Assembly: GCA_958296385.1 (NCBI GenBank)
Contig: OY282494.1
Coordinates: 2,622,981-2,686,980, forward strand
Direction: 5' to 3'
DNA length: 64,000 nucleotides
Source: an uncultured Dehalococcoidia bacterium
GTDB lineage: Bacteria; Chloroflexota; Dehalococcoidia; Lucifugimonadales; UBA3495
This document shows, piece after piece, positions 1,734 through 61,868 of this stretch. Both the position numbers and the translations under genes were made by a program. Position 1 is the stretch's first letter. Every line of letters begins with the position of its first letter. The notes beneath the pieces were generated by a model. It searched no databases. It was not told where the DNA came from and was given only the letters and a program-made list of their open reading frames with translations.

Positions 1734-1797
1734 AAGTTCCTCCGATTTGCTAACGTCATTCTCAGCGGCGCGGGGAATGACCGGGGGCGGGTGTAAG

Positions 1798-2496: not shown

Positions 2497-2526
2497 GGGC
2501 GGCCTCGCGGGGGTTGGCAGGGCGTT

Positions 2527-3351: not shown

Positions 3352-3479
3352 AAAAGCAATCGCAAAGGCAGTGGCAAAATCGCCAACCAGTATAGCATCC
3401 GGGCCGGATGTTGACAGCGGCTGGGGACGGGGCTAGGCTAACGCTGGTCGGGCGATGGCCCGGGTTTATGGAGGGCGTG

Positions 3480-4193: not shown

Positions 4194-4268
4194 TGGTCGG
4201 GGTGGGCAGATTCGAACTGCCGATCTCCTGCTCCCAAAGCAGGCGCCTTGCCGCTAGGCCACACCCCG
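4194..4268 (-). tRNA. tRNA-Pro (anticodon UGG), CCA encoded
   Basis: The reverse complement folds by hand: acceptor CGGGGTG/CACCCCG, D stem GCCT/AGGC, anticodon stem CCTGC/GCAGG with loop TTTGGGA, T arm GGCAG-TTCGAAT-CTGCC, then ACCA. Confidence 0.85.
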
Positions 4269-4314: not shown

Positions 4315-4386
4315 TACCCCCGTGGAGATTCGAACTCCAGTCTCTGGCTCCGGAGGCCAGCACTCTATCCACTGAGCTACGGGGGC
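4315..4386 (-). tRNA. tRNA-Arg (anticodon CCG), no encoded CCA
   Basis: Reverse complement is GCCCCCGTAGCTCAGTGGATAGAGTGCTGGCCTCCGGAGCCAGAGACTGGAGTTCGAATCTCCACGGGGGTA. Anticodon stem CTGGC/GCCAG with loop CTCCGGA, T arm TGGAG-TTCGAAT-CTCCA. Confidence 0.85.
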
Positions 4387-6012: not shown

Positions 6013-6029
6013 GCTGGCACAACCGAATA

Positions 6030-6125
6030 GTTCCGGCGGGAGCTTGGGTAGCCAGGCTGAGAGGGTGGCCGCAAAGCCATCGACCGCAATACCTGATCCG
6101 GGTAATGCCGGCGTAGGGATATGCA
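6030..6125 (+). promoter_or_regulatory. TPP (THI-box) riboswitch
   Basis: GGCGGGAGC...GGCTGAGAG...ACCTGATCCGGGTAATGCCGGCGTAGGGA matches the conserved CUGAGA and ACCUGAUCNGGNUAAUGCCNGCG cores of the thiamine pyrophosphate riboswitch. Confidence 0.85.
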
Positions 6126-6138
6126 GCGCATCTTTCGT

Positions 6139-6212: not shown

Positions 6213-7709
6213 ATGCTGGATACCGGAGTAGGCATTGCAACGGTCGTGCTGGTCTGCGCAACCTTTCTGTTCCTCGGCGTCACCTACATCGGGCGCCGCC
6301 GCCAAAGCGTGGAGGATTACACCGTCTCACGCAACCACGCCCCGGCCAACGTGGGCATCGCCACCCTGGTGGCGTCCATGTTCGGCACCTGGGTGCTGCT
6401 CAGCCCCGGCGAAACCGGCGCCAACTTTGGCATCATCTCCCTCGTCGGCTACGCCCTGGGCATCGCCGCCATACCCGTAATGTTCATGTTCGTCGGCCCC
6501 CGCATCCGCCAGCTGATGCCTAACGGCCACTCCATAACCGAGTACGTCAAACACCGCTTTGGCCTGATTCCATTCGTCGCCATCTCGGTGGTAATCATCT
6601 TCGTAATCGGCATATTCATTACCGCCGAGATGACCGCCATCACCGCCGCCGTCAGCATCCTGACCGGCTCGCCGGCGTGGGCTACCGCCGTTGCGGTGGG
6701 CGTGGTGGTGGTGGCCTACACCGCATACGGCGGCCTGCGCGTGTCCATCTACACCGACCGCATCCAGTTCTGGGTGCTGATTCCGGTGCTGCTGCTGCTG
6801 GTCATCGTCGCGGCGGTTATAGTTACCGGCGATGGCGTCTGGGATGTGGCCGGCCAGGCCGGGCTGCTGTCGGTTTCCACGCCGGGCAGCTACTACTTTG
6901 GCATCGTGCTTATCATCGGCATCGTAGCGTCCAACGCGTTCCACCCCGGAATGTGGCAGCGGGTGTACACCGTAGAGAGCCAGCGCGCGCTCAACCGCAG
7001 CCTGCTGGGCGCGGCGGCCCTGGCGATACCGATTACGTTCCTGATGGGAATGGCCGGCATCGCGGCAGTAGGCAACGGCTCCGTCGGCCCCTTCGAGTAC
7101 CCCGCAGTTGCCGCCGCCCTGTTCACCCTGGCCTCCGACGTGTTCCCCCTGTGGATGCACTTCCTGATGCTGGTCTGTGCCCTGATGCTGGCCATGAGCA
7201 CGCTGGACACCCTGATGAACGGCCTCGCCAGCGGCATCGCGGCCGACCTGGCCGGCGCCGGCATGGGGCGCAGCATCCTGATGCTGCTGGCCCGCTCCGT
7301 AACGGTAATCGTCGCAATCCCGGCCGTCATCGTCGGCGCGCAGGGCTTCAGCGTGCTGTACGTATTCCTGATTGCCGACCTGCTGGGCGCCGCCATCGCC
7401 GTGCCGATGCTGGTGGGGCTGTACTCCCGCCGGATGCCGGGCTGGGCCGTGCTGCTGTCCGGCGGCGCCGGCATCATCATCGGCGCCCTGTTCTACCCCA
7501 AACCCGACTTGATTTCGCCCTGGGCCATCGCCGCCCCCTTCGGCGGGCAAATGTTCTTCGCCTTCGCCTCGGCAGTGGTAGTGTCATCGGCAATCGCCGC
7601 CGCAGTCATCCTGCTGCGCCGCCTGGCCGCCCCCCAGCAGCAGTACGACTTCCGCATCCTCAACACCGGCGTACAGCTGATTGACGAGCCGTCAGCCGCC
7701 GACGACTAG
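6213..7709 (+). CDS. Sodium:solute symporter (SSS) family transporter, probably thiamine or thiamine-precursor uptake (ThiV-like)
   Basis: 498-aa multi-pass hydrophobic protein with an SSS-type N-terminus (EDYTVSRNHAPANVGIATLVASMFGTWVLLSPGE). Sits directly downstream of the TPP riboswitch, with a GGAGG RBS. Confidence 0.85.
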   Translation: MLDTGVGIATVVLVCATFLFLGVTYIGRRRQSVEDYTVSRNHAPANVGIATLVASMFGTWVLLSPGETGANFGIISLVGYALGIAAIPVMFMFVGPRIRQLMPNGHSITEYVKHRFGLIPFVAISVVIIFVIGIFITAEMTAITAAVSILTGSPAWATAVAVGVVVVAYTAYGGLRVSIYTDRIQFWVLIPVLLLLVIVAAVIVTGDGVWDVAGQAGLLSVSTPGSYYFGIVLIIGIVASNAFHPGMWQRVYTVESQRALNRSLLGAAALAIPITFLMGMAGIAAVGNGSVGPFEYPAVAAALFTLASDVFPLWMHFLMLVCALMLAMSTLDTLMNGLASGIAADLAGAGMGRSILMLLARSVTVIVAIPAVIVGAQGFSVLYVFLIADLLGAAIAVPMLVGLYSRRMPGWAVLLSGGAGIIIGALFYPKPDLISPWAIAAPFGGQMFFAFASAVVVSSAIAAAVILLRRLAAPQQQYDFRILNTGVQLIDEPSAADD

Positions 7710-19663: not shown

Positions 19664-21175
19664 GGTTCCAGAGGTTCAGTATGACTACCACAACCATCAC
19701 CGCCGTCAAGAAGCCGCCACCGCCACCGTTACCGTCCGCACCGGCCCCGGCCCGTTTCCGGTTCCCGGACCCGCCTGAACGTGAGATTGATGAGTCAATG
19801 ACTAACCACCGACAAATGACCTATACGGGCCACTGCCACCACTTGGCCCGGTATCTCGGCAATGAGGCTACCACCCTGGTCACCGCGGACCGTTGGATTG
19901 CGCGTGGGCCGCGCCCCGGCACTACCGGCCTGCGTCTGCCTGATTTGCTCGTGGCTTTTGACGTTGACCCGCAGGCTTACCATGCCACCCGGGGTTATCT
20001 AATCACGGAGCAGGGCAAGCCGCCGGACTTTGTGCTGGAAATAGCCTCGCCAAGCACGGGCAAGGTGGACGTTGAGGAGAAGCCGGCTGATTATGCGGGG
20101 CTGGGCATCCTGGAGTACTGGCGCTTTGACGAGACGGGGGATTCTCACGGAGTGCGGCTGGCCGGCGACCGTTTGGTGAATGGCCGGTATGAGCCTATCC
20201 CTATTGAGGAACTGCTGGATGGGTCTTTGCAGGGGTACAGCCCCGTGCTGAACGTGTACCTCCGGTGGGAGCCAGTGCAGGGGGAGCAGGGTATGTTGGG
20301 CTGGTATGACCCGGAAACGGGGCAGCACATCCCGACGTTTGACGAGGAGAGGGAGGGGCGCATCATGGAGAGGGAAGGCCGCATCATGGAACGGGAGGGG
20401 CGCCTCCGGGCCGAAGCCAGGGTTCGCGAATTGGAGGAGGAAAACCGGCGACTGCGTGGCGGCTAGCCCCCGGCGCTGCTCAAACCGTGTCCCATCAGGT
20501 TCCAGAGGTTCAGTATGACTACCACAACCATCACCGTCGTCAAAACGCCGCCACCGGCACCGTTACCGTCCGCACCGGCGCCGGCCCGTTTCCAGTTTCC
20601 GGACCCGCCTGAACGTGAGATTGATGAGGCAATGACTAACTACCGACAAATGACCTATACGGGCCAATGCCACCATCTCGTCCGGTATCTCGGCAATGAG
20701 GATACTACCCTGGTCACTGCGGACCTTTGGATTGCGCGGGGGCCGCGCCCTGGCACTAGCGGCCTGCGCCGGCCTGATTTGCTCGTCGCTTTTGACGTTG
20801 ACCCGCAGGCTTACCATGCCACCCGGGGTTATCTAATCTCGGAGCAGGGCAAGCCGCCGGACTTTGTGCTGGAAATAGCCTCGCCAAGCACGGCCAAGGT
20901 GGACGTTGAGGAGAAGCCGGCTGATTACGCGGGGCTGGGCATCCTGGAGTACTGGCGCTTTGATGAGACGGGGGATTCTCACGGAGTGCGGCTGGCCGGC
21001 GACCGTTTGGTGGATGGGCGGTATGAGCCTATTCCGATTGAGGAATTGCCGGATGGCTCGTTGCAGGGGTACAGCCCCGTGCTGAACGTGTACCTGCGGT
21101 GGGAGCCCGTGCAGGGGGAGCAGGGTATGCTGGGCTGGTATGACCCGGAAACCGGGCAGCACATCCCGACGTTTG
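19664..21175 (+). repeat. Tandem direct duplication (two ~0.67-kb copies, period 834 nt) spanning both Uma2 genes and their 17-nt leaders
   Basis: GGTTCCAGAGGTTCAGTATGACTACCACAACCATCACC occurs at 19664 and again at 20498. The copies stay colinear with scattered substitutions until the C-terminal tails diverge. Confidence 0.85.
19681..20466 (+). CDS. Uma2-family (DUF820) PD-(D/E)xK endonuclease, copy 1
   Basis: PDLLVAF...PDFVLEIASPST...EEKPADYAGLGILEYWRFD is the Uma2 D...E-x-K signature. The C-terminus carries EREGRIM tandem repeats. Confidence 0.8.
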   Translation: MTTTTITAVKKPPPPPLPSAPAPARFRFPDPPEREIDESMTNHRQMTYTGHCHHLARYLGNEATTLVTADRWIARGPRPGTTGLRLPDLLVAFDVDPQAYHATRGYLITEQGKPPDFVLEIASPSTGKVDVEEKPADYAGLGILEYWRFDETGDSHGVRLAGDRLVNGRYEPIPIEELLDGSLQGYSPVLNVYLRWEPVQGEQGMLGWYDPETGQHIPTFDEEREGRIMEREGRIMEREGRLRAEARVRELEEENRRLRGG

Positions 21176-21405
21176 ACGAGAGGCAGGAAGCCCAACTCCG
21201 AGCCGAGGCCCGCACCGAACAGGAGCGAGCCGCCCGACTCCAGGCTGAATCCCGGGCTGAACAGGAACAGGCCGCCCGACTCCAGGCTGAAACTCGCGCC
21301 GAGCAGGAGCGGTCTGCCCGCCTCCAGGCCGAGGCTCGCTCCGCGCAGGCTGAGGCGGAGGTGCGGGCTTTGCGGGAGCGGCTGCGGTTGCAGGGGGGTG
21401 GCTGA
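20515..21405 (+). CDS. Uma2-family (DUF820) PD-(D/E)xK endonuclease, copy 2
   Basis: Near-identical to copy 1 over roughly the first 220 aa. It has a different C-terminal tail made of three 14-aa R(A/T)EQE(R/Q)(A/S)ARLQAE(S/T/A) repeats. Confidence 0.8.
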   Translation: MTTTTITVVKTPPPAPLPSAPAPARFQFPDPPEREIDEAMTNYRQMTYTGQCHHLVRYLGNEDTTLVTADLWIARGPRPGTSGLRRPDLLVAFDVDPQAYHATRGYLISEQGKPPDFVLEIASPSTAKVDVEEKPADYAGLGILEYWRFDETGDSHGVRLAGDRLVDGRYEPIPIEELPDGSLQGYSPVLNVYLRWEPVQGEQGMLGWYDPETGQHIPTFDERQEAQLRAEARTEQERAARLQAESRAEQEQAARLQAETRAEQERSARLQAEARSAQAEAEVRALRERLRLQGGG

Positions 21406-21688: not shown

Positions 21689-21708
21689 GGGGGGGGGGGG
21701 GGGGGGGG
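21689..21708 (+). repeat. Homopolymeric G20 tract at the 5' end of the giant gene
   Basis: Counted directly: 20 consecutive G, ending 7 nt before ATG 21716. Confidence 0.95.
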
Positions 21709-45700: not shown

Positions 45701-47317
45701 GACGACATCGACACGCTAACGCACACGCCCAGCGCCGGCGGCTACCTGGCCACCGCAGCCGCTACGGTATCCGTAATCGCGCGGGACACCACCGCGCCGG
45801 TCATCACTTTGACCCCGGCCAGCCTGCCGTCCCTGAATGAGAACTCCACCGACGACTACACCGTGCGACTGGCGTCTGAGCCGGCGGCTACTACCACCGT
45901 CGCCATCGCCAGCAGCAACGCCGGCGTCACCGTTTCACCGAACTCCCTGAGCTTCACCACTGCCAACTTTGGCACTGCCCGGCCGGTAACGGTAACCAGT
46001 ACCACCGACAGCGACGCGGTGCACAACGCGTTCGGGATAACGCACACGCCCACCATCCGGGGCATCGCCAGCCCGGCCACGCCGCTGCCCCTGCTGTTCC
46101 TGGAGCCGGTTCCCCCCGGCGGCGGCGCCACGACGACTCCCATCGAATTCCTGGCGCCGACGCCCGGCAACACCGCAAGGTACGCCGTTGACGCCTCAAC
46201 GACGCACACGATAACCACCGACGCCGGCGTCCCCGAGGGCGTAATCATCCGGTCAGTAGGCGGCGTGGGCCTGGCCTCGAGCACCACCATAACCATCGGC
46301 ATCGCGGCGCCCGCCCCCCCAATCACACATCCCGGCTACACCCTGGACCCGGATACACTGGTGGACATCACCGTAACGCCGGTGCCAACAGTCGGCCTGC
46401 AAGTCTGCCTGCCCCTGCCCCAGGCCGGCGGCCCCGGCGGCCCCCGGATGCTGCACTACGATGGCAGCCGCTGGCGGCTCGTGTCGGGCTCCCGGCAAAT
46501 CGGCAGCCAAGTCTGCGGCACCGCAACCGACTTCTCCCCCTACATCGCCGGCCGCCTCGCCCAACCCATCGCTGAGCCGTTGCCTCCGTCCGATGGCGGT
46601 GGCGGCGGCGGTGGCGGCGCTGGCGGTGGCAGCTTCGGCGGCGGTGCACCGGCCCCGACAGCCACGCCGGCCCCAACGCCTACGCCCACGCCAACTCCGG
46701 CCGCACCGGCGCCAACCCCGACGCCGGTAACGCCCACGCCGGCCCCCGAGCGGCCCACGCCCACGCCGGCCCCCACACCCACGCCAGCGCCGCCGCCGGC
46801 CGCATCCCCCACGCCAACGCCGGCCGCCCCGCCAACAGCGGCCCCGCCGCCGCCGCCCCCGGTAGCCGCCGCTATCCAGCAGCCGGCCATCATCGGAGAT
46901 ATAACCTTCAGCAACGACAGCCCCGAACCGGGCAGCGGAATACTGGTAAGGTTCCCCGTAACCAACCCCGGAACCATCACCGCGGAGTACCAGCTAATCC
47001 TCGAAGTAGCCGGCGAAACCGTCCAGCGCCAAACGGTAACCATCCCGCCCGGCGCAACCCAGGATTTGCGCCTGCCCATCATCGCCCCGGACGCCCGCGC
47101 TGCGGTAATCGTCAGGGTGGACGAGCAATCCCGGACGGTAATCCTGACGCCAGCCCGCCCAGCAACCGGAACGGGAACCGGCACCGGCGCCGGAACCGCC
47201 GCGCCTGTCGACGAACCGGCCGGCGGCGCGCCCTGGCTGCTAATCGGCATAATCGCCGTAATCGCACTGGCCATCATCGGCGGCGGCATCGCCCTGCTGA
47301 TGCGTAGGCGCGGCTGA
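21716..47317 (+). CDS. Giant (~8,500 aa) secreted, C-terminally membrane-anchored modular surface protein (GLUG beta-helix modules, cadherin-like and Calx-beta-like beta-sandwich arrays, CARDB-like domain)
   Basis: One uninterrupted frame (the track gives 21581-47317, 8578 codons). ATG 21716 yields MPRLGQRQGYRRRFGRGRFVLAGLVALLLLLAGLALFGGAGDVLA/QS, a classical signal peptide. The protein sequence is coherent and repetitive but not degenerate throughout. It ends with PWLLIGIIAVIALAIIGGGIALLMRRRG. Confidence 0.9.
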   Translation: MPRLGQRQGYRRRFGRGRFVLAGLVALLLLLAGLALFGGAGDVLAQSTTDYDTNDNNLIDITTLDQLNAIRHDPDGDGDPTSGGATAYNDAFPSRESGATGRMGCPNTCAGYELRADLDFDTTGNDDIADSPYASWTPIAGYTNTFRGNGHTISNLTINATGSSGVLYAGLFASISSAVSGVGLPNAKITSSHTGNFLLMGPLAGNVATGGTVTSSWATGSVTSTATGSGFKFIGGLVGHNEGPVRASYSGASVTATTTATAVRVGGLTGGLNLASGTVTASYATGAVSGGSGNGSHVGGLVGQFRSDDPSIIASYATGAVTGDAGAKGGLVGSAGSGTITDSYWDVTASGVADDADSPAGEGKTTSELKTPIAYGTGASIYANWNVNADGDTTTGAMTTGNDDPWHFGTASQYPILQFDRDAAAIDRQYGNAAVNYDANNNNLIDVATLARLDAIRYDLDGDGVTATGADAVKYASAFPGLTAGMGCMSACIGYEVRDDLDFDTGTAGNRGDDTYANGTLGWEPIGNATTTFTAIFDGNSDDYTISNLYINRPTGDGVGLFGRTNGATLRNIALEDVAVTAASRTGALVGQADGGTISSSHSTGGTVTVSGDVAGGLAGQVNGAGAISGSYSTVNVVASGGEAGGLVGLLMRERVLVNVANVRFDTGSVSGSYATGTVGGTTNVGGLVGRVYLGSISDSHATGAVSSASAGAKVGGLVGYLQIEAETASAPPVQAAGSINASYANGAVSVTGANVHAGGLVGENYAGLIKDEFTQSRATASIRASYATGAVGGTGAANRLGGLVGYNNANRTEPRPGFAPRGTATAEIIASYSNGRVTGAGAGTQKGGLVGGSRGRQSTPGASGYSDTVITDSYWDVTASTVADDADSSTGVGKTLSELQTPTAYGTATSTPPSIYASWNLNLDASAGNDDPWDFGTNSQYPVLKHNRDADAIARQRAANQVIDYDANSNNLIDVKTLDQLNAIRHDLDGNGDATHADYVAAFPNAVTGMGCPDTCAGYELLNDLDFDTDDDNDVDSNDDYPNWTPIGTAVAPFTTTFDGNNNVISNLTITSNSNRVGLFGQSEGTLSGIGLENVNVTGSAQFGYIGTLAGRNLGTVISSWATGTVEGSNRGAQTGGLVGRSFNSSIRASYADVAVTVASSAQQASFGGLVGRAYGTRIIASYATGSVSGGFSNSSNAGGLVGNLVVNSSIEESYATGRVTVGVGVLIGGLAGRLENSSTPRSYWDSIASGRGGSGSKTTYELRGPTAYGTATSTPPSIYASWNVNVDGNAATGDSTGRDDPWDFGTDTQYPVLKFDGMDVAAQQGRQPNISNDSSLSALAVSEVTPLVPAFATGTDTYTAMLPVGSAARTVTVTATTTDMTLAASVTYSAVAGGGSAVTADADPGTAGHQVVLGGPSTVITVTGRAQDGSRSSYTVTITGIPENDYDTNNNDLIDVISLDQLNAMRYDLNGDGTAESNGVLYANAYPLPAARMGCPNGCTGYELRNDLDFDTINDDNEADAPYDNWVPIGTDGAQFSGAFQGNGHSISNLNVNAGANVVTLGLFGTVSGAISGVGLPNARIAGARAQATAIGTLAGTLGGGGTATSVWATGSVASSDAGGGTKYIGGLVGYQAGTVLASYSGATVTVDNAATSVYAGGLTGLVQGSVIASYATGAVSGGTGAGAHVGGLAGRVNAAGSRITASYATGTVTSGGANVGGLTGSVTNSVNVGSSYWDTITSGIADDADNTAPEGKTTYELRMPTAYGSSSADLYAFWNLDLDNADNDNTLTTGRDDPWEFGTNAQYPILKYGGLASSTQRAILPSPSSTDSTLSALSVTGVALRPVVFDAATLAYTAALGADSDLSSVTITATPTDMASVSISAVIGSGAAVTSDADTVAAGYQVALGSPTTTVTITVAAADGSRTTYTVTITVPPADYDADNDNLIDVRTLDQLNAIRYDLGGNGVADDSTDQATYSMAFPRAAAGMGCPSTGCTGYELLNDLSFDTNGDGVISFLDGAYEHWEPIGKSGAPYTATFKGNGHTIDRLNIVAEDVGQVGLFGAVGVARDSGNNITMTGAISGVGLPNANVSTQSTATNVVGTLVGYLDGGSVTSSWAAGKVEEKSEDNSGKQVGGLVGIASGAVRDSYARVSVMTDARISDVHAGGLVGQLNGGTITASYATGAVSGGIQNGSYVGGLVGWVSNTASITASYATGQVSINTGVNGGGLAGNMAGSIMNSYWDVTTSGVADDADSPAGEGKTTIELQTPTAYGATGIYSAWNVNVDGVSGIDDPWYFGTSSEYPILKHQRSVINIDWQRNPTLTKKNYDDDGDNLIDITTLAQLDAMRYDLSAGGEGSIAEANRIKYAAAFPGLTPGMGCDDGCTGYELRRNLDFDTDNTGAVDSSDAYPNWTPIGSSGSPYGGEFKGNNFTISNLTINAPASIREMGLFGGAGGAISGVGLPNVKITGAAVALNAGALAGVLSGSVTSSWATGTLEARNSGLGGFKYVGGLVGWMVSSGDYVRASWANVAVTAPTSFVSAGGLIGLLDSGDVIASYALGAVSGGEGGPSRTGGLVGAVTGNGSTITASYATGPVTGQDGSSVSGLFNTLINTPTIANSYWDSIRSGIADDSDDDAPEGRATYQLRGPTAYGASTTTDLYFAWNVDVDNADGDNDLTTGTDDPWDFGTNLLYPVLQYDGMDAAGQKAVQPTISTDSTLSGLSVAPARLVETFAAGTDSYTATLPAMSTALSVTVTATTTAMTARGVSYSAVAGGGSPVTADADTGADGHQVTLVGPMTDITITVMAEDGSTQSYTVSITVPENDYDDNDNGLIDVRTVEQLNAIRYDLNGDGTTNAGDAAAYAAAYPYPMAGMGCQAVDHDNDANTANQPVCTGYELRQNLDFDTTGDDDTADAPYENWVPIGAGSTQYSGEFKGNNFTIANLTIDAPASIDEVGLFGGPVGAISGVGLENVKITGAAVALKAGALAGVSQGSVTSSWATGTLAASDGSNSIKQLGGLVGRLVNSDVIASWANVSVSAPDSAIGIYVGGLVGIVNNSDVIASYATGAVSGGGAGSRIGGLAGFMEGGGSTITASYATGPVTGGNGSTQSGLLSAFVGTITNSYWDAIRSGIPDDADDAAPEGKTTYELRSPTAYGASTSTGLYVAWNVDVDNADGDNNLATGGDDPWDFGTNLEYPVLKYDGADAAGQKTGQPTPSTDGTLSGLSVAPAMLTTTFAAGTASYTATLPPGATPLTATVTATTTAATARGVSYSAVAGSGSPVTADADTSADGHQVTLVGPLTVITITVMAEDGSPQTYTVSITVPTHDYDTNNNGLIDVTTLERLNAIRYDLNGDGTANAGDAAAYAAAYPYPMAGMGCPSATCTGYELRNALDFNTGEANIRTDDTYYNDGEGWAPIGGVTGRFATAPSETYTGAFNGNGFAISNLQIDRTGSDSSDADSYIGLFGDASGRIEQVALVNAEVKGETVVGTLVGRLASGGSIVASYVQGGLVEGHSYIGGLVGINQPNASITASYTDIRVNNTYTGSIFGGTGYATGGIAGIHAGRIIASYAMGSVERQPLTGTRASTGGLSGFTGSNSPAQATTNSYWDTVRTGQATEFGFPRTTAGGKATYELRTPTNAGGYAGIYANWNLNIDGDTGTGTPTTGLDNPWDFGTGMQYPALRYGGHSAAAQFARQPDIGTNDELSSLTVAPATLAPDFSASVIEYTATLPDSNPAALTVAGVTATTTDVSISAVIGSGAAVTTDADAVAAGYQVTLGSPNTVITVTATAPDGSTTTYTVTISIPANDYDADDDGLIDITTLAQLNAVRYDLDGDGAVSSGDAANYASAFYYPAAGMGCAAVDHDNDANTADQPVCTGYELMADLDFDTDDSGGVDSSDTYPNWAPIGSVSSSFTGDFEGNGHTIANLTINNTSGSGALRLGLFGNIGGSVSGVGLPDASISSSYSGTLLMGPLAGNVIGNGTVTSSWATGSVESTDTGGAKFIGGLLGHSERPVRASYSGASVTAPNTATGVSAGGLAGALFSTSTVTASYATGAVSGGTGSGSHVGGLVGQFRSSTASIIASYATGAVTGGGTGANVGGLVGSAGTATITNSYWDVTASGVADDANSPAGVGQTTTALQTPTGTTGIYSGWDVNVDGESGNDDPWHFGTASQYPILQFDRDVIAIERQYSNVGKDYDDDNDNLIDVTTLAQLDAIRYDLNGDGAGWAKGSASARYATAFPGLSAGMGCPDGCAGYELLADLDFDSNDDGEVNSSDAYPNWTPIGTAAAPYTATFNGNHRTIANLTVNAAASVGRVGLFGEASGAISRVGLPDVSISAAAAGLLAGALVGFLDEDGTVTSSWATGSVTATDTGSDAQSIGGLVGETSGAVRGSYAGVSVTAPNTATNVRAGGLVGYSAVVTASYATGAVAGGAGNDSDTGGLVGLSGATGAGSAVATASYATGAVTSGIGANVGGLAGRSVFMSIPTVNSYWDTEKSGIAAGASSYGVGKTTSELQTPTAYGDIYAMWNVDVTDTGNIDDPWDFGLNSQYPALKYDGMDVLRQGRNTILFSTDALDVTEEDSAGANYTVRLGGAPKAGTTVTVAITSPADDDVTIATDGTFSDSATLRFTDADYTTGQTVTVKAGGDANLANESLTLTHTASGAGSGFADATADLTVTVIDNDTGAILLRQSGSDITALTITEEASSDTEYQVSLDQPPLASVSITITSSDADAVRIHDGSSTFTDSDFGSSHTLTFAAGTTTAQTVTIRAPHDSDGNEGSATLTHTAAGTGHGYNNASTTLSVTVTDDDTPAVLLWEAAAETASSTLTVAEEGSGSYRVRLQTQPTADVTVTVTASGDLTIDDSTGNDFATTKTLTFTGGSGGNWETAQTIRVRAAADVNLANETLTITHAVTSTDPAYTGLSDVSLTVTVEDDDTNAAAIILKQNGTATSTLSLIEGAAAAEYTVELSHEPSHDVEVTVTAAGDVTIDGPDVPTTLTVSETLTFTAGSYGPQIIRAQAASDSDLFDDTLTITHAAADATSGMASGYAGVSKDLAVTVADDDQGEIRVTSGGSVVELGVTEEHSGTVTYDVELVQTPLANVTVTVAVPSDYTDVLEIDGPDAGLTFSSSETINFTPTDHGKKTITLRAKADDDDDGATFSLTHTAADATSTASGYDGVTKDQLVRVTDNDVPGITLSVTTALAVREENASPVTYTVVLDTKPGADVIVTVTAGTNLEIDDSAGDDFGGSETLTFTSMDWNTAQTIRVNALADDNVVHETTAITHVVTSTDTAYNAVGDESLAVNVTDSDTAAIVLATTTLMITEGGSDTYTVKLSNEPSAEVTVTITSPADDDVTIATDGSTFSDSETLTFDADWNTGKTVTVQTAEDDDDLGNDTAILTHTASGVGSGYESASTTALTVTVEDNDSGDILLRQSGADIATLTIDEEASDTTYQVSLAQAPLADVSITITSSDADAVRIHDGGSTSTDADFGSSRTLTFDAGVTTAQDVTIRAPHDHDGIPGSSTLTHAAVGTGHGYNNARATLDVTVNDNDTPAVLLWEATDDSASSTLTVAEEGSASYRVRLQTQPSADVTIDVTAAGDLTIDDGDGTFGTTEELTFTSGSSGNWNTPQTITVRAAADNNLADETPAITHAVTSTDTNYGSLSDVSLTVTVKDNDTGSIVLTDSSNDPLTALTIDEGAAPITYKVALSHKPLADVTVTFNRTSGNVTIDTNNDNTFAATGETLTFTTTNWNVAQPVRVQAGDDFNLADDSGSINHVASNAATGVASGYAGISKALSLTETDTDTPTIKLTHATTGNAITELTVTEGNDVEYKVELSHQPLHPVTVTVTSNDSDAAIIEGPDSGSDFSDSETVLFTVSNWNTAQTVTVRAPQDNDDDNESPTLTHTPTDTTSGSESGYAGITAVTLPVTVMDDDLPGILLWEAAADTASSTLTVAEEGSASYRVRLQTQPSAAVTVTITAGTNLEIDDNNDNDFGTTETLTFTVMNWNTAQTVRVNALADDNLADETPALTHDIASISDTAYNAVSNVTLTVTVKDNDDAAIIIKQSGSEITALSLTEAAAASSYTVELSNQPSANVTVLVTATDDVTIDDNSGTDFDTTETLTFTANTWDDPQTIRARAATDPDLSDDDTTITHVASDATVGSVSGYAGVRKTLDVTETDSTTPTVVLTDSGGDAITTLDVTEDAGNVTYNVGLSNPPLAAVTVVITSGDADAVQIDDGGTFGTSRTLNFAIGATAAQPVTVKAPHDNDDDNESVTISHNPDGAGSGGYETIASQDLTVAVDDDDDPAIALYHATDLTATTTLTVTEEATATYRVRLASQPTQSVTVTITPSAGLQVDDGGGTFANSGTLTFPASDWDDLQTVTVQAAEDVDLTDTTITIAHSTDSTDTDYARAAGLSATLTVTVEDNDTASIILSETGTLALTEQAAAVNYTVKLSHQPAASVTVTVTSAGAVTIDDNTGTDFSTSETLTFTGGGSGNWNTPQTIRVQAGDDSNLEAETSTITHAIASTGDANYNALEDVSLSVSIADNDTGDIELTQSGSAIAANTLAINEEASNTTYSVGLSEAPLAQVTVTITSGDADALQIHDGGSDFNDADFSGSRTLTFASGVTTAQEVTIRAPHDGNSISERVTITHVAGGTNNGYVGVSKSLTVNVADNDTPGIALVISELTVTEENTSGGTYDVALQTQPNADVTVTVTAPDGLTIDGPAAGTNFTSSVTLDFTTINWETGQTIAVRAAADDNLSHDTHQISHVAADATSTASLYAGLSKDLAVTVEDNDNPTIIVATSTLTVMEGDTETYTVRLSHQPAHGVTVTIASGASDGVEIDGPDNGATFSNSETLFFTNSASSWQTPQTVTVRGLSDADLSDSTGNTLTHTASNTVSSQDSLFTSAPAVTLTFTVDDDDTGDILLTQNSAAITSLTINEEHATDTTYQVALSEAPLADVTITVTTDDNDAVTIDGPDGNSDFTNSEALLTFNSTNYATPQTVTIKAPADNDPDNESVTLTHTASGGTNNGYGGVSKDLSITVSDDDSPNIALSVSALTVAEENTSPATYTVVLATQPTADVTVTVTASGDLEIDNNTGNDFGSSETLTFTGGATGNWETAQTIRVNATGDNDLKDDTPTITHNPSSTDNDYNVLDNKTLNVTITDDDTGSIVLEQGGSALTTLALSEGGSTVNYTVELSHQPTANVDVTLTATDDVTIDNASGNDFDTTETLRFTPGNWQTAQTIRARAANDNDLGNDTTTITHVAADAATGVTSDYASVSNTLDVTVTDTTTPTVVLTDSGGDTITALAVDEEGSNVTYDVALSNRPLDSVTVTVTSGNVAVTVDDGDGTFGSSDALTFTTTNWSTAQPITVKALADDNSTNESVTLTHAAADATSGMTSGYAGISDVTLTVNVDDDDDPEILLWHPTDDTATTSLTVTEEGTQSYRIRLNTEPRAAVNVTVSARAGLEIDNGSGTYGSSRTLNFSTTNWNSPQTVTIRATADDDLAVGSGTLSHAARNAGSTASDYHGLSKSLPVTITDNDTPTIIISETGTLSVDEGGNTTYTVWLSNRPAAGVTITITSSATDDVEIATDGTFGDSATLRFSTGDWNSRKTVRVQGLPDNDLSNDLNNTLTHAASNTTAADSLFASAADAELSVTVTDTTTPSIVLTQSGAAISGALGINEEGGNVTYGVGLSNAPLAPVTVTITSGNAAVEIHDGSSAYNDANFSSSRTLTFATGATAAQMVTLRAPNDPGPDHETVTLTHAGSGSLSGYESVSDATLTVNVTDNDTPALLLTPTVLTVTEEDSAGESYTVSLTTQPSADVTVAVTAPAGLTIDGPDDATDFTSSETLTFTNANYAAKTITVKADADDNLIANNFTITHNPSSTDSNYNALPNSSLSVTVTDDDTGSLILSETSRTVIEGETTGQTYTVKLSHRPNAAVTVTITSTGKAAATPASLTFNTSTWDREQTVTVKAVADVNIIDDIDTLTHTPSAGGYLATAAATVSVIARDTTAPVITLTPASLPSLNENSTDDYTVRLASEPAATTTVAIASSNAGVTVSPNSLSFTTANFGTARPVTVTSTTDSDAVHNAFGITHTPTIRGIASPATPLPLLFLEPVPPGGGATTTPIEFLAPTPGNTARYAVDASTTHTITTDAGVPEGVIIRSVGGVGLASSTTITIGIAAPAPPITHPGYTLDPDTLVDITVTPVPTVGLQVCLPLPQAGGPGGPRMLHYDGSRWRLVSGSRQIGSQVCGTATDFSPYIAGRLAQPIAEPLPPSDGGGGGGGGAGGGSFGGGAPAPTATPAPTPTPTPTPAAPAPTPTPVTPTPAPERPTPTPAPTPTPAPPPAASPTPTPAAPPTAAPPPPPPVAAAIQQPAIIGDITFSNDSPEPGSGILVRFPVTNPGTITAEYQLILEVAGETVQRQTVTIPPGATQDLRLPIIAPDARAAVIVRVDEQSRTVILTPARPATGTGTGTGAGTAAPVDEPAGGAPWLLIGIIAVIALAIIGGGIALLMRRRG
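21863..35400 (+). repeat. Ten tandem coding modules (1.1-1.6 kb each) of the GLUG type
   Basis: Module starts ((D/N)YDxNxNxLID) at 21863, 23021, 24608, 26054, 27527, 28691, 30182, 31691, 33134 and 34301. Each module contains GNGHTISNL, many GGLVG repeats, and a SYWD...DDPWDFGT..QYP.L end. Confidence 0.85.
35411..46108 (+). repeat. About 29 tandem coding units (~105-128 aa) of a Calx-beta/cadherin-like beta-sandwich, including a 6-unit super-repeat
   Basis: Each unit has the pattern LTV.E....Y.V.L...P.A.VTVT.T......ID.......LTFT..NW.T.QT..V.A..D.D...E...I.H........L.VTV.D(N/D)D. Units 1-6 (35411-37654) are colinear paralogs of units 7-12 (37655-39904). Confidence 0.8.
46595..46862 (+). repeat. 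Low-complexity Gly run followed by a Pro/Thr/Ala linker (coding)
   Basis: GGGGGGGGAGGGSFGGGAPAPTATPAPTPTPTPTPAAPAPTPTPVTPTPAPERPTPTPAPTPTPAPPPAASPTPTPAAPPTAAPPPPPP. Confidence 0.9.
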
Positions 47318-51159: not shown

Positions 51160-53427
51160 TTAGTTGCCGGCCGCAAAGGGGAACTCTGCTTCCCAGAGGT
51201 GCCCCTGTCCAGGGGCGTACTGGCCGGTTTTGATTGCGGAAATGTCGTATTCCGGGAGCGGTATGCTCGCCAGGCATTTGCCGCTGAATATCGTGCCGTG
51301 CCCGGAGAAGGCGAAGTCAAGGTTGTCAAAGCCGTATCGCTTGCGGTCGTCGGGGAGAGTATTCGGATCAGTGGGGATGACGTGCAGAAAGAACCGCGCT
51401 TCCGTGTCGGCGCGGACGCACGGCGCTTTGGCGTAGGTCAGCGTGTTCTCGCTGAGATAGACGTCAAAGGTGGCGCGGATTACGGGTTCTCCGGATACGA
51501 ACGTCTCGTAGTCGGAGCGGGCCGTCGCAACGCCGAACTCTTTAATCGCTTTGCCGTTGGCAATCAGAAAGACGCTGAGTCTTCCGCCGCTATAGACCTG
51601 CTCAGCCGAAACTTGCTCGCCCAGCTGTCCTATCCCCACTAGCGGGCTGATGGCGTCCGTCTGAACCCGATGCGTTGTGCCGTTCTTTTCGTAGGACACA
51701 TAGGCGCGCAGGAACTTGCCCGTGTCTGCGCCGGTTGGGGTGTACCGGTATTTGCGAGCATCAGCGATGTCCGTCCAGGTGGCGTCGTCGGGCGTATTAG
51801 GGACGCCGGGCCGGGCGTCGGCCCGCTGCCAGCGCCAGCGACTTGCCGGGTTGTCGTCAACCCGGTGCGGCTCGTCGTTAACCAGGTAGGCGATAAAGTT
51901 GGCGCCCTCTCTACGCCACTGCGCCTCGTTCGCGCCAGCAGCCCCGGCATTGTCGGGCGGTATCGTCCCTATTAAGTCGGATGGGTACACCAGAAAGATT
52001 CTATTTGGGACATTGGGGAGCGAGTCGACCAAGTTGACCATCTCCCGGTTACACGGTTCATAGGTGTCCCAACATTCTGTCTTTCCATAGAGGTAGTTGC
52101 CCGGTTTTGCATCTTGGTAGAACTGCATAGCAGCGACGGCACGGCTGGTTACGAAAACAACGTCGTCGTCTGCAACGCGTTCATCCAGAAAAGAAATAAC
52201 GGCCTTAGCGTTTTCCCGCGTCTTATAGGGACTGTCTAGCCGGATGTCGACCACTCCGGCCAGCGCAATTGCGCCGGCGGCGGCAACAGCCAACGCCGGA
52301 ACCGTCCAAGCCCGCCGCAACAGTCCGGCCAGGCTAACCGCCGTCCAATGGATGGCAACGCCGGCGGCCAGAAAGATGACCGGCCCCAGATAGAGGTTGG
52401 GCCGAAACTTGCCCAGCGGATAAACCGTCAGCAGGGCGGCGATGATGGCGATGCCCACGGCCAGCAGGGCCAGCGTTGCAATAGCGTCCAGTCGCTGCCG
52501 CCGCCATAGCGATACCAGCAGCATCAGCGCAAACGCCCCCACCGCCGCCACCGCAACGGCCGGCGGCAGGTGCCAGTTCAACATCATCCAGGTGCGCGAA
52601 ACCGCAAATCCCAGAATGTCGGCAACGTCAAACCCGCCTTGATAGTAGAAGCGCTCATAGCCGTCCCAACCCCCGGCCCGCCACTGGTAAATCACCGTAA
52701 CCGCGCCACTGATAACGCACCCCGCCAGCAAACACCCCGCCGGCCAGACCAGTGCGATGCGCTGTCCGAACCAATTACGAATCCGGCTGCGGTACGAATC
52801 CGATTCCGATTCTGGCCCGGCCAAAGTCGGGGCGGGCAAAATCAGAGCGGCGCCCATCACGGCGATGCCGAACAGGACCAAACCGTACTGGAGCAGCGGC
52901 GCCACGAACAGCGCCGCACAGAGCAGCCCCTTGCGCCCGTCCCGCAAATACCACAGCAGCCCGACTATTAGCAGCGTAGCCAGCAGTGCATCAATGGAAT
53001 ACTCCCGCGCATCCTGGGCGTGCTTTATCGCGGCAACCGAAAGCGTCGCCAGCAGAGCCGCCAGAAACGCCGCCCACCGGCTCACCCCAAAGCGCGGCAG
53101 CAGAAAGAGCATCACCCCCACCGTCAACACGCTGGCTATCGCCGGCAAGATGCGGATGCTGAAAGCCGAGACATCCACCTTCTGCACCGCCCACAGCGCC
53201 AGTGGGTACAGTATCGGCGATGAGTTCCGCGCGCGGGTATTGGAGACTACCTCCGCGAGTGAGCCCTTGGAATTAGCGGCGGCAACCGCCTCGTCATACC
53301 ATACGGAGTTCCCCGTCAGGTCGTAAAACCGCAGCCCCGCCGCCACCAGCAGCAGGCACACCAACGCCGCCAGCGCCAGCCGTTCCCGGGTAATTCGGAT
53401 GGAGAAAGATGGGATGGGGATGCTCAT
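51160..53427 (-). CDS. ArnT/PMT-family (GT39/GT83-like) membrane glycosyltransferase with a large C-terminal extracytoplasmic domain
   Basis: N-terminal LRFYDLTGNSVWYDEAVAAA...SPILYPLALW (the DE motif in the first loop) followed by many TM segments. The C-terminal ~300 aa are soluble. Confidence 0.75.
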   Translation of the reverse strand: MSIPIPSFSIRITRERLALAALVCLLLVAAGLRFYDLTGNSVWYDEAVAAANSKGSLAEVVSNTRARNSSPILYPLALWAVQKVDVSAFSIRILPAIASVLTVGVMLFLLPRFGVSRWAAFLAALLATLSVAAIKHAQDAREYSIDALLATLLIVGLLWYLRDGRKGLLCAALFVAPLLQYGLVLFGIAVMGAALILPAPTLAGPESESDSYRSRIRNWFGQRIALVWPAGCLLAGCVISGAVTVIYQWRAGGWDGYERFYYQGGFDVADILGFAVSRTWMMLNWHLPPAVAVAAVGAFALMLLVSLWRRQRLDAIATLALLAVGIAIIAALLTVYPLGKFRPNLYLGPVIFLAAGVAIHWTAVSLAGLLRRAWTVPALAVAAAGAIALAGVVDIRLDSPYKTRENAKAVISFLDERVADDDVVFVTSRAVAAMQFYQDAKPGNYLYGKTECWDTYEPCNREMVNLVDSLPNVPNRIFLVYPSDLIGTIPPDNAGAAGANEAQWRREGANFIAYLVNDEPHRVDDNPASRWRWQRADARPGVPNTPDDATWTDIADARKYRYTPTGADTGKFLRAYVSYEKNGTTHRVQTDAISPLVGIGQLGEQVSAEQVYSGGRLSVFLIANGKAIKEFGVATARSDYETFVSGEPVIRATFDVYLSENTLTYAKAPCVRADTEARFFLHVIPTDPNTLPDDRKRYGFDNLDFAFSGHGTIFSGKCLASIPLPEYDISAIKTGQYAPGQGHLWEAEFPFAAGN

Positions 53428-59314: not shown

Positions 59315-59336
59315 CCCCCCCCCCCCCCCCCCCCCC
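59315..59336 (+). repeat. Homopolymeric C22 tract upstream of the LRR surface-protein gene
   Basis: Counted directly: 22 consecutive C. They are in frame (Pro7) with the downstream KRR-hydrophobic signal sequence. Confidence 0.95.
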
Positions 59337-59393: not shown

Positions 59394-61868
59394 TTGGCGG
59401 GGATTGGGGTTGCGCTCATGATGGATGGGCGGTCGGCGTCGGCGCAGTCGGCGCCTTGTACTGCGACCAGCCCGGCGCTGAGTACGTGGCTTAGTACGAC
59501 ACCGGCGCCGTCGACTACTACGACGGCCGCGCTGATTGCCGACTGCAACACGCTGCTGGGCCTGGAGGGCACCCTGGCCGGCACCACCCTGGATAGCATG
59601 GGCCAGCCCGTGGATAGCATGGGCAACGCCGCGGATAGGCTGGGTTGGGACCAAGTAGTGTCTTTGGATATGTGGCGGGGCATAACGGTAGAGGCTTCGC
59701 CGACGCCCGCCACCGGCGCTTACCGGGTTACCAAAGTGAATTTGGAATGGAGGTCGAGCACCAACTCGGCGAGGCAGCGTCTGCAAGGGCAGATTCCGGC
59801 GGCGCTGGCGAATTTGCCGGGGTTGAAGGAGCTGGATCTGTCAAGGAACCAGCTGACGGGGGGCATACCCACGGAATTGAGTACGCTGGCCCATTTGGAA
59901 ACGCTGAATTTGGATCGGAACACCGGTCTCACCGGGGGGATACCGGCGGAGCTGGGCAGCCTGACCGCGCTTAAGGAACTGGACTTGACGTTTATCCCGC
60001 TGACGGGCAGCATACCCGTCGAGCTGGGGAACCTGTCTAACCTGGAGCGGCTGGCATTGGTGCAAAATTCGCGTGTTTCCCAACGACTTTCCGGCACCCT
60101 GCCCACCCAATTAGGTAACTTGGGCAACCTGAAGCACCTGCTTATAATCAACACCGACATCACCGGAAACATCCCCGTCGAGCTGGGCAACCTGTCGAAT
60201 CTGGTGACCTTGCAGCTTTGTAATAATGATCTCACCGGGACGATTCCGAAAGAGCTGGGGCGGCTGTCTAATCTGGAGAACCTCTGTCTGCGGGGCAACC
60301 GGCTGACGGGGAGTATTCCGAAAGAGCTGGGGAGCCTGTCGAACCTGGAAACGCTGTCGCTGAACGAGAACCGGCTGACGGGGAGCATCCCCAAGGAGCT
60401 GGGGAGCCTGTCGAACCTGGAACGGCTGTATCTGTACGACAACCGGCTGACGGGGAGCATCCCCAAGGAGCTGGGGCAGCTGTCCAGGCTGGTGTATCTG
60501 TTTCTGAGGGATAACAGGCTGTCCGGGGCAATTCCGCCGGAAGTGACTGGGCTGACCGGCCTCGCAGGTTTGGGTCTCACAGGCAACTCACTGGAAAGCC
60601 GGGTTGCGCTAACGCTGTCCAGGACCGAAATCGGCGAGGGGGACGGGGCGACGGACGTGGTGGTGACGGTTAATCCGGCCGGCAGTGATACATGGGGGGC
60701 GAACCGTATCGGGGGGAACGTTGCCAGCGGGGTGACAATCCGGGCGGCGGCCAGCGGTGGGGCGAACGTCGTTACTTTTGCGGTGAATGAACCGGCGGCC
60801 TTCGATATACCCAGGGCGGCGACGACGACGGAGCGCAGCGTTACCCTGCGGATAACGCCCAATGACAACACCGTAATCAATGCTGACGAGACGATTACGG
60901 TAACGGTAAGCGGCACGGGGGCGCCGGGCGCGGCGAACACCGCGCTGAGAGCGGCGGCCGATTACGAGATTACGCTTACGGATGACGACCAGCCGGTGGT
61001 TGCCGACCCGACGCCGACGCCGACGCCAGCACCGACGCAGGCTCCGGCGCCGGCTCCGACTCCGGTGAATGATGATGACGATGACGATGATGACCCGCCG
61101 CTGACGCCAACGGCTACGGCAACACCGACGATGCCGGCCGCAACGCCGGCACCGACGACGCCGGCCGCGACGCCGGAGCGGGAGCCGGCCGCTACGGTGG
61201 CACCGACGGCGCCGGCCGCAACGCCTACTCCGACGGCGGCGCCTACTGTGGGGGCACCGACGGCGCCGGCGGCAAGGCGCACGGCGGCGCCGGCAGTTAC
61301 GGCAACGCCGCCGCCGCCCATGCCAACAGCGGCGCCGCCGGCGGATTCGCCTACGCCAACGCCGGCAGCGCCACCAACGGCGGCGCCACCGACGGAGCCG
61401 CCGCCGGCCGCGTCCGTCATCCAGTCGCCGGCGGTGATTGGTGAGATTACGTTCAGCAACCCCAGCCCGGCGCCGGGGAGTTCGGTGCTGGTGGAGGTTG
61501 CGGTGAGCAACCCCGGAACCGGGCCGGCCGGGTACCTGCTGGAAATCACCGTAGCCGGCGAGGTAGTGCAGCGGCAGACGGTGACGGTGGAGGCCGGGGA
61601 AACGGAGCAAGTGCGGCTGCCGGTGGTGTCCCCGGACGTGCCAGCTGAGGTGGTGGTTCGGGTACGGGATCAGTCGCAAACGGTGACGCTGACGCCGGCT
61701 ACGGACGGGAGCGGCGGGGGAGGCGGAACCGGCGGCGGAGGGGCGACGGGCGACGTGGAAACGGTCGGGGGGCCGCCGTGGCTGCTGATGGGGGTTCTGG
61801 CGGGGGCAGCGGCGGTAGTCCTGGGAGGGTTCGTCGTCCTGCTCCGGAGGCGGGGGCGGGCCGGCTGA
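59394..61868 (+). CDS. Leucine-rich-repeat surface protein (24-residue LRRs) with one Calx-like unit, a PT linker, a CARDB-like domain and a C-terminal TM anchor
   Basis: About 11 repeats of LxxLxxLxLxxNxLTGSIPxELGxLSN. The tail ...PPWLLMGVLAGAAAVVLGGFVVLLRRRGRAG matches the giant protein's. The annotated TTG 59394 cuts into the signal peptide (KRRLIATAALLAVVLAGIGVALMMDGRSASA/QS), so the true start is unresolved. Confidence 0.85.
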   Translation: MAGIGVALMMDGRSASAQSAPCTATSPALSTWLSTTPAPSTTTTAALIADCNTLLGLEGTLAGTTLDSMGQPVDSMGNAADRLGWDQVVSLDMWRGITVEASPTPATGAYRVTKVNLEWRSSTNSARQRLQGQIPAALANLPGLKELDLSRNQLTGGIPTELSTLAHLETLNLDRNTGLTGGIPAELGSLTALKELDLTFIPLTGSIPVELGNLSNLERLALVQNSRVSQRLSGTLPTQLGNLGNLKHLLIINTDITGNIPVELGNLSNLVTLQLCNNDLTGTIPKELGRLSNLENLCLRGNRLTGSIPKELGSLSNLETLSLNENRLTGSIPKELGSLSNLERLYLYDNRLTGSIPKELGQLSRLVYLFLRDNRLSGAIPPEVTGLTGLAGLGLTGNSLESRVALTLSRTEIGEGDGATDVVVTVNPAGSDTWGANRIGGNVASGVTIRAAASGGANVVTFAVNEPAAFDIPRAATTTERSVTLRITPNDNTVINADETITVTVSGTGAPGAANTALRAAADYEITLTDDDQPVVADPTPTPTPAPTQAPAPAPTPVNDDDDDDDDPPLTPTATATPTMPAATPAPTTPAATPEREPAATVAPTAPAATPTPTAAPTVGAPTAPAARRTAAPAVTATPPPPMPTAAPPADSPTPTPAAPPTAAPPTEPPPAASVIQSPAVIGEITFSNPSPAPGSSVLVEVAVSNPGTGPAGYLLEITVAGEVVQRQTVTVEAGETEQVRLPVVSPDVPAEVVVRVRDQSQTVTLTPATDGSGGGGGTGGGGATGDVETVGGPPWLLMGVLAGAAAVVLGGFVVLLRRRGRAG
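59781..60598 (+). repeat. LRR coding array with near-identical 72-nt repeats
   Basis: NRLTGSIPKELGSLSNLE(T/R)L occurs three times in succession between about 60290 and 60500. Confidence 0.85.

Follow-up and report, generated by a model that had tools for sequence, protein, structure and literature searches.

A conserved C-terminal cassette of Ig-like domain, GGxPWLL motif and membrane helix on otherwise unrelated surface proteins of sponge-associated SAR202 bacteria

We analysed a 64-kb stretch of sponge-associated, SAR202-type Dehalococcoidia DNA (contig OY282494.1; "the window" refers to this whole stretch) in which two genes encode otherwise unrelated surface proteins that end in the same cassette: a proline/threonine-rich linker end, an immunoglobulin (Ig)-like domain of CARDB-like fold, a short spacer, a GGxPWLL motif, a transmembrane (TM) helix and a terminal arginine cluster. 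The MutS2 protein encoded in the window is 72-83% identical to those of 54 metagenome-assembled genomes (MAGs) in GTDB that are labelled Dehalococcoidia, SAR202 or Chloroflexota, several of which we take to be sponge MAGs, judging from their isolate names. The first carrier gene is an open reading frame (ORF) at 21581-47317 on the plus strand, listed as 8578 aa, which encodes a giant surface protein. Its likely true start is the ATG at 21716, beginning MPRLGQRQGYRRRF, and the N-terminus, MPRLGQRQGYRRRFGRGRFVLAGLVALLLLLAGLALFGGAGDVLA|QS, looks by eye like a signal peptide (VLA|QS). Within 21581-46594, the giant protein carries repeated DxDxDG-type units (NNNLIDVxTLxQLNAIRYDLDGDG), GLUG repeats (PF07581) and cadherin-like beta-sandwich domains (PF12733), together with dozens of ~100-aa repeats that end in TVTVxDDD, are unrecognised by Pfam and appear Calx-beta-like by eye. 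The second carrier gene lies 12 kb downstream on the same strand (ORF 59394-61868; 824 aa from the first canonical start) and encodes a surface protein with plant-type leucine-rich repeats (LRRs) at ~59781-60593. A signal-peptide-like sequence, KRRLIATAALLAVVLAGIGVALMMDGRSASA|QS, is encoded from ~59349, upstream of the TTG at 59394.

The cassette spans ~170 residues, and its layout is identical to the residue in the two proteins: a 94-aa Ig domain and a 22-aa spacer are followed by GG(A/P)PWLL(I/M)G, a hydrophobic stretch of ~22 aa and a basic terminus (RRRG or RRRGRAG). In the giant protein, the cassette is entered from a linker that is first Gly-rich and then Pro/Thr/Ala (46595-46873), the last ~23 residues of which (46805-46873, SPTPTPAAPPTAAPPPPPPPVAAA) form the conserved 5' edge. 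There follow the CARDB-like Ig-fold beta-sandwich domain (46874-47155), a hypervariable Gly/Thr/Ala spacer that is predicted to be disordered (47156-47221), the invariant juxtamembrane motif GGAPWLLIG (47222-47248), the predicted TM helix WLLIGIIAVIALAIIGGGIALLM with its conserved mid-helix GG (47234-47302), and RRRG with the stop codon (47303-47317). The equivalent elements of the LRR protein, likewise on the plus strand, are a Pro/Thr/Ala linker with a poly-Asp run (61002-61418; conserved end 61347-61418), the 94-aa CARDB-like Ig-fold domain (61419-61700), a Gly-rich spacer of 22 aa (61701-61766), the motif GGPPWLLMG (61767-61793), the TM helix WLLMGVLAGAAAVVLGGFVVLL (61779-61844), and RRRGRAG with the stop codon (61845-61868). 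The poly-Asp run, eight residues long (DDDDDDDD, 61074-61097), breaks the Pro/Thr linker; similar Asp/Glu runs precede the linker in P0003, P0004 and P0006, three of the further carriers described below. An earlier sequence-only reading of the window had described the last ~240 aa of the two proteins as colinear, over 46595-47317 and from about 61003. The C-termini are colinear and the first interval is in frame, but the second start is one base out of frame, with the linker codons running from 61002, and homology sets in only with the conserved linker end, the last ~20 residues before the Ig domain (PTAxPPTxPPPVAA).

Residues 8432-8578 of the giant protein (46874-47314) align colinearly with residues 676-821 of the LRR protein (from 61419) at 54% identity (BLASTP E 1e-30, with composition-based statistics), as had been proposed, and tblastn of the window returned these two cassette copies only. 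The two linker ends share an identical 15-mer, SPTPTPAAPPTAAPP, at 46805-46849 and 61347-61391; in 2000 composition-preserving shuffles of both linkers, the longest shared substring was at most 10 residues. A resemblance of this kind could be an artefact of low-complexity similarity, or the product of recent duplication or gene conversion, since the linkers consist of Pro/Thr/Ala sequence of low complexity and the two genes are no more than 15 kb apart on one strand. However, the alignment reaches its significance over the non-repetitive Ig domain, and the shared 15-mer differs in 8 of its 15 codons, in line with the earlier remark that about half of them are synonymously different. Across the cassette pair, the same codon is used at only 35 of the 82 identical residues, nucleotide identity is 63%, and synonymous divergence (NG86 dS) reaches 1.2 in the Ig domain and 1.5 in the tail. 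This high synonymous divergence, together with the codon differences, excludes a recent copy or gene conversion, indicating that the cassette is conserved at the protein level, under protein-level purifying selection, and is not a recent DNA copy.

We ran a cassette profile exhaustively with HMMER against 1.84 billion representative proteins and obtained 510 matches, the best 150 of which extend down to 46.6 bits. The full cassette including the motif was present in only seven matches, P0001-P0007 (E 1e-50 to 1e-73). Hidden Markov models of the tail and the Ig domain, run on the loci retrieved, added a tenth carrier that lies in tandem with P0007 (L004 14217-18623); with the two proteins of the window this makes ten, and the tail thus extends beyond the pair in which it was noticed. 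P0001 is a fragment at the end of a contig, P0002-P0006 are giants of the GLUG/Calx-like type, related to the one in the window, and P0007 is an FG-GAP/fn3 protein. The cassette therefore has passengers of three types, GLUG/Calx-like giants, LRR and FG-GAP/fn3, with the LRR combination met only in the window. At L004 10001-18623, tandem FG-GAP/fn3 proteins of 1363 and 1468 aa each have two CARDB-like domains plus the full cassette. All full carriers come from close relatives, and at least five occupy dispersed positions on the two large contigs of one metagenome assembly, ERZ19488967.

We observed no cassette in 185,579 GTDB species genomes, using a pattern-based scan in which diverged copies would be missed. 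A word-indexed protein search, queried with the cassette, a nine-sequence cassette alignment and a tail-only alignment, gave only P0001, or three short weak fragments. This search missed carriers known to be present in the collection, so its negatives have little weight and the exhaustive HMMER search is the reliable one. In JGI metagenomes, we found only two proteins, both from soil metagenomes (L002, L003), that have GG(A/P)PWLLIG before a TM helix and are otherwise non-homologous. By a rough estimate, ~15 chance matches to the nine-residue motif pattern are expected in a collection of this size, and these motif-only proteins may reflect chance or a generic solution for starting a helix. Unrelated soil or other metagenome proteins in which GG(A/P)PWLLIG or TPWLLIG starts a C-terminal TM helix, with no CARDB-like domain, comprise L002 857-1048, L003 993-1085, P0170 and P0171, among which one is NlpC/P60-like by eye and others are short fragments.

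By Ig-domain identity, the cassettes group by passenger type and not by genome, indicating that the module has long been inherited together with each gene; the LRR cassette is the most divergent of the ten, with 51-61% Ig identity to the others. This grouping, the dS values, the codon usage and the linker shuffles rule out recent duplication, gene conversion and a low-complexity artefact, and we regard an artefactual resemblance as extremely improbable. The cassette on these otherwise unrelated surface proteins is a real conserved C-terminal module, as the sequence-only reading had held.

Conservation within the module is concentrated in the motif. Across the ten sequences, 7 of 9 motif columns are invariant, as against 27 of 94 in the Ig domain (Fisher p 0.006), 4 of 18 in the rest of the TM helix (p 0.011) and 0 of 22 in the spacer, and the motif has been kept in all three passenger types and in cassette lineages separated by dS >1. 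GG(A/P)PWLL(I/M)G, a hydrophobic stretch of ~22 aa and RRR(G/A/R) within 3-7 residues of the end are found in all ten carriers, extending to the whole family the three-part arrangement of the very C-terminus (motif, TM helix, Arg cluster) that had been described for two proteins. The Gly at helix position 4 and the mid-helix GG are also invariant in all carriers.

AlphaFold2, run on a three-sequence alignment, modelled the Ig domain as a six-to-seven-strand beta-sandwich (pLDDT ~92-95 over residues 10-95), followed by a disordered spacer and a C-terminal helix. Foldseek comparison with the PDB identified Ig-like accessory domains, namely the GH3 Fn3-like domain, LacZ domain 4 and the CARDB domain of Pyrococcus PF1109 (3idu, 2kl6; probability 1.0, TM-score on target 0.64-0.68); the first two kinds of domain fit as well as, or better than, the two PF1109 structures. 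No match to Pfam CARDB (PF07705, an E-set Ig fold) reached the gathering threshold of 22.7 bits, the LRR copy coming closest with 18.6 bits (E 0.002); seven of nine cassette family members match this model at E<1 (best E 6e-4), and all nine match LacZ_4, another Ig-like family, also below gathering. The earlier description of the domain as CARDB-like is consequently correct at the level of the fold and of a distant sequence relationship, but not as a Pfam-level assignment. The cassette profile also retrieves hundreds of proteins that are matched in several tandem stretches.

CARDB-like proteins that end in a C-terminal TM segment account for 76 of the best 150 of the 510 matches, seven of the 76 being members of the cassette family, indicating that a membrane-proximal CARDB-like domain with a TM anchor is a common architecture. 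Among the other 69, at least two Arg or Lys residues stand just past the TM segment in 53, a Trp stands at the junction in 18, and a Pro-Trp pair does so in four. Aromatic residues are enriched at membrane interfaces, and juxtamembrane Trp, sometimes as Pro-Trp, is common in the C-terminal anchors that follow CARDB-like domains of unrelated proteins. By contrast, GG(A/P)PWLL(I/M)G with the conserved linker end is confined to the narrow cassette clade. The combination of a CARDB-like domain, a TM anchor and a basic cluster is thus already widespread; what is new is a very narrow family with an undescribed conserved juxtamembrane motif. The nearest outgroup proteins, P0012, P0014, P0016 and P0019 (E 1e-16 to 1e-20), likewise combine a homologous Ig domain with a TM helix and RRRR, but the PW motif is missing from them and (G/S)N(T/A)G(L/V)I(V/I)G stands in place of GGxPWLL. 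They and P0037 resemble the carriers in having a Pro/Thr linker upstream, and their whole FG-GAP/fn3 plus helical-domain architecture is that of P0007; P0012, P0014 and P0037 correspond in this way to both tandem proteins of L004.

We judge it somewhat probable that the cassette is a lineage-specific, modular and uncleaved stalk-and-anchor by which large adhesin-like ectodomains are tethered to the cytoplasmic membrane; the membrane topology, the role as a stalk and the lack of cleavage are what we infer from these data. In such a mechanism, the precursor would be exported by Sec through its N-terminal signal peptide, and the C-terminal hydrophobic helix would act as a stop-transfer anchor, with the Arg cluster setting an N-out/C-in orientation according to the positive-inside rule. 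The Pro-Trp pair would lie at the outer membrane-water interface, the Pro capping or breaking the helix and the Trp serving as an interfacial anchor. The short Gly/Thr spacer would provide flexibility, the CARDB-like Ig domain would serve as a pedestal close to the membrane, and the long Pro/Thr linker, which may be O-glycosylated, would be an extended stalk that pushes the passenger domains (those of the GLUG/cadherin-like/Calx-like giant, the LRRs, or FG-GAP/fn3) outward. The haloarchaeal S-layer glycoprotein offers a likeness, with a Thr-rich, probably glycosylated stretch near its membrane anchor and a wall-less envelope. Since peptidoglycan synthesis genes are reported missing from sponge SAR202 genomes (PMC6306507), covalent wall anchoring would be no option in this host, and a membrane tether would be a simple and obvious solution.

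Several observations weigh against an uncleaved stalk-and-anchor. GGxPWLLxG is more conserved than a generic helix start needs; the cytoplasmic tail is always 3-7 residues long, like that of known sorting signals; haloarchaeal CARDB-like relatives have a genuine sorting signal, PGF-CTERM, at the equivalent position; and every tail tested gives a weak, partly PW-dependent match to a curated sorting-signal model, GVDTG_CTERM. These bear on a rather unlikely but possible alternative, in which the tail would be a C-terminal sorting signal not described before, a "GGxPW-CTERM". Its GG(A/P)PWLL would be recognised at the outer end of the helix by a membrane enzyme dedicated to it, for instance an intramembrane protease resembling rhombosortase, an enzyme of exosortase/archaeosortase type, or the partner of GVDTG-CTERM; the TM/Arg segment would then be removed and the protein released, or re-attached to a lipid or an envelope polymer. 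Consistent with a sorting signal, the tripartite layout stands at the extreme C-terminus of every carrier, its most conserved element is the motif, next to a hypervariable spacer, and this motif has been retained over the divergent passengers and lineages noted above. The dispersed carriers of ERZ19488967 show a many-to-one pattern, and the helix has destabilising features, namely Gly/Pro where it starts and the conserved GG in its middle. Such features occur in rhomboid substrates.

Against a sorting signal stands the homology of the carriers beyond the tail. By definition, carriers of such signals are alike in the tail alone, whereas homology here always runs through the 94-aa Ig domain and the linker end. 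We found no tail lacking the Ig domain among the best 150 of the 510 matches (at least 46.6 bits), nor in the loci read. When calibrated against the A1 query profile, tail-only fragments of independent carriers scored 45-60 bits (last 40 aa) and 37-48 bits (last 33 aa), so most such fragments would rank within the best 150. The extremely narrow distribution also counts against a sorting signal, with only seven clusters among the 1.84 billion representatives and none among the GTDB species representatives (a pattern-based result), and the outgroup has no motif. Sortases, exosortases/archaeosortases, rhomboids and CPBP proteases were looked for among the window ORFs scanned and in the Pfam annotations of genes flanking the carriers at L001, L004, L005, L060, L061 and L062 (~185 kb in all), and none was found. 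This is a weak argument, since the processing enzymes are usually encoded far from their many targets, as outlined in PMC3237569. The sequence-only reading had proposed a sorting/anchoring signal: membrane anchoring by the cassette is well supported, but the constant linkage of tail and Ig domain, the narrow distribution, the motif-less outgroup, the frequent juxtamembrane Trp in unrelated CARDB-like anchors and the lack of a neighbourhood enzyme speak against a dedicated sorting signal, and enzyme-dependent sorting is a possibility only.

Scans of the whole tails and of their last 39-46 aa matched no C-terminal sorting model of NCBIfam or Pfam at cutoff, and the PW motif, which the earlier reading had failed to recognise, is accordingly part of a tail that no curated model in either collection describes at threshold. 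The best curated match for every tail was NF058571 (GVDTG_CTERM), at 13.2-23.2 bits for nine natural tails compared with a cutoff of 29. We probed this match with two rounds of synthetic variants of the giant tail. Replacing RRR with AAA lowered the score by 13.2 bits, replacing the upstream VDEP with AAAA lowered it by 8.0 bits, and replacing PW with AA lowered it by 5.9 bits, the last suggesting that the model favours PW, in support of a sorting signal. Changing the invariant GG to AA left the score unaltered (0 bits), which counts on the other side, as does the position of all tails under every curated CTERM cutoff; changing the mid-helix GGG to AAA cost 0.8 bits. Grafting in GVDTG itself raised the score only to 25.6-26.4 bits. 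The GVDTG signature is not present in the cassette family, in which this region is hypervariable (PVDEPA, GDVETV, PAAEPA, PAVEQT and others). From these sequence comparisons, the model appears to share a PW-like position, a TM helix and an Arg cluster with the cassette tail, but its own signature is distinct and it gives no credit to the family's invariant GG. The resemblance is partial, a lead and not a membership. We found no paper on GVDTG-CTERM. The outgroup tails with "GNTG" were considered as what GVDTG_CTERM models, wrongly, as those tails give no match to it.

The remaining curated models were more distant. The best family-tail scores were 10.1 bits for LPXTG (TIGR01167; cutoff 15.9), 8.4 for PEP-CTERM (TIGR02595; cutoff 16) and 6.9 for MYXO-CTERM (TIGR03901; cutoff 20), and neither GlyGly-CTERM (TIGR03501) nor PGF-CTERM (TIGR04126) matched any family tail at E<=10; the sole listed match to TIGR04126 was an unrelated tail, P0058, at 11.5 bits (cutoff 24.5). 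We consider doubtful the more specific proposal that GG(A/P)PWLL-TM-RRR is a new sorting signal of peptidoglycan-less sponge SAR202, maybe a divergent relative of GVDTG-CTERM, at which a membrane enzyme would cleave to release or lipid-anchor host-contact adhesins and eukaryote-like LRR proteins.

Known systems resemble the cassette in part. The Por secretion tail, or C-terminal domain of the type IX secretion system, is the one known sorting signal that consists of an Ig-like beta-sandwich (~80-100 aa), and it forms the C-terminus of a variety of passenger proteins. Unlike the cassette, it has neither TM helix nor Arg cluster and belongs to diderm Bacteroidota, and Por_Secre_tail gave no match to the cassette in the Pfam and NCBIfam scans. 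In 14 distant haloarchaeal CARDB-like proteins among the best 150 of the 510 matches, a PGF-TM-basic tail stands where the cassette has GGxPW, a likeness to the system of PGF-CTERM and archaeosortase A, which has S-layer glycoproteins among its targets as well; the cassette differs in having no PGF motif and a bacterial host, and no archaeosortase or exosortase was seen in the neighbourhoods covered. PMC3237569 describes LPXTG, PEP-CTERM, PGF-CTERM and GlyGly-CTERM as one tripartite class (motif, TM helix, terminal basic cluster) and the Por signal as architecturally different. GlyGly-CTERM (TIGR03501), the rhombosortase target (PMC3237569, PMC6219818), is like the cassette in having a Gly motif at the outer end of the TM segment, terminal basic residues and several unrelated secreted proteins per genome (PMC3237569). 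However, GlyGly-CTERM proteins are homologous over ~22 residues only, compared with ~170 for the cassette, and are largely proteobacterial, whereas the host here is a Dehalococcoidia lineage reported to be without peptidoglycan genes, and no rhomboid gene was seen nearby.

The invariance of the small helix residues (the Gly at position 4 and the mid-helix GG) along with the motif, and the presence of one cassette on functionally different ectodomains on the two large contigs of a single assembly, could also indicate that motif and helix form a protein-protein interaction surface. Such a surface would mediate lateral oligomerisation, or docking to a shared partner in the membrane or S-layer, and so cluster different adhesins. 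We think this improbable: elsewhere in the TM helix, the LRR protein has little in common with the other carriers (tail identity 53%), and no partner gene is conserved beside the carriers.

The SAR202 Dehalococcoidia of sponges, an abundant and so far uncultured group, have very large adhesins and eukaryote-like repeat proteins that presumably mediate contact with the host. With the cassette, one anchoring module is combined with at least three kinds of ectodomain. As a sequence marker that profiles recover cleanly, it could flag membrane-tethered surface proteins in this clade, and, should its motif turn out to be where processing occurs, the Chloroflexota would gain a sorting system, none being known to us in that phylum.

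The window contains only two homopolymer runs of at least 9 nt, each just 5' of a carrier gene. A G20 tract (21689-21708) ends 7 nt before the likely ATG of the giant gene at 21716, and a C22 tract (59315-59336) lies between the stretch encoding the signal-peptide-like sequence of the LRR protein and the only canonical start codons upstream of it. There is no in-frame ATG, GTG or TTG between the upstream stop (~59286) and the TTG at 59394, with the C22 tract intervening; upstream TTG codons at ~59282 and ~59299 are out of the LRR frame but would be in frame if the C tract were 21 or 24 nt long. Two related giant genes in ERZ19488967 have G10 (L060 9981-9990) and G13 (L005 10056-10068) tracts at the same position, and 238 kb of other SAR202 loci contain a single run of at least 9 nt. 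The tracts could serve slipped-strand phase variation of surface-protein genes, or could be homopolymer-length errors; the LRR gene may have been sequenced in an "off" phase, or its tract length mis-called by one base.

Immediately upstream of the giant gene lie two genes of the Uma2 family (PF05685, putative restriction-endonuclease-like; 19681-20466 and 20515-21405). An Uma2 gene is also found directly upstream of the giant genes in L060 (8905-9801) and L061 (9061-9816), with more copies scattered in L060, such that a gene of this family precedes the giant gene in all three cases with an annotatable 5' flank; gene calling gave no Uma2 gene before the giant gene of L005. Between the two carriers, 51160-53427 on the minus strand encodes a polytopic 755-aa protein that weakly resembles PMT/GT-C and Agl23-like proteins (Pfam PMT E 4e-4, TIGR03663 E 8.5e-5; both under cutoff); speculatively, it could be a GT-C/PMT-like glycosyltransferase of the Pro/Thr linkers.

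Towards the start of the window, a thiamine pyrophosphate (TPP) riboswitch on the plus strand (6026-6138), which scores above its gathering threshold with 57 bits, precedes a gene of the sodium:solute symporter family. Genes of the sodium:solute symporter and TenA/THI-4 families occupy intervals 3408-4148 and 6213-7709 near the riboswitch, which together with them probably forms a unit for salvage or uptake of thiamine precursors. ORF 1672-3414 on the plus strand was rejected as spurious, HisF being encoded on the opposite strand at 2527-3351, and two tRNA genes are located on the minus strand at 4197-4268 and 4315-4386.

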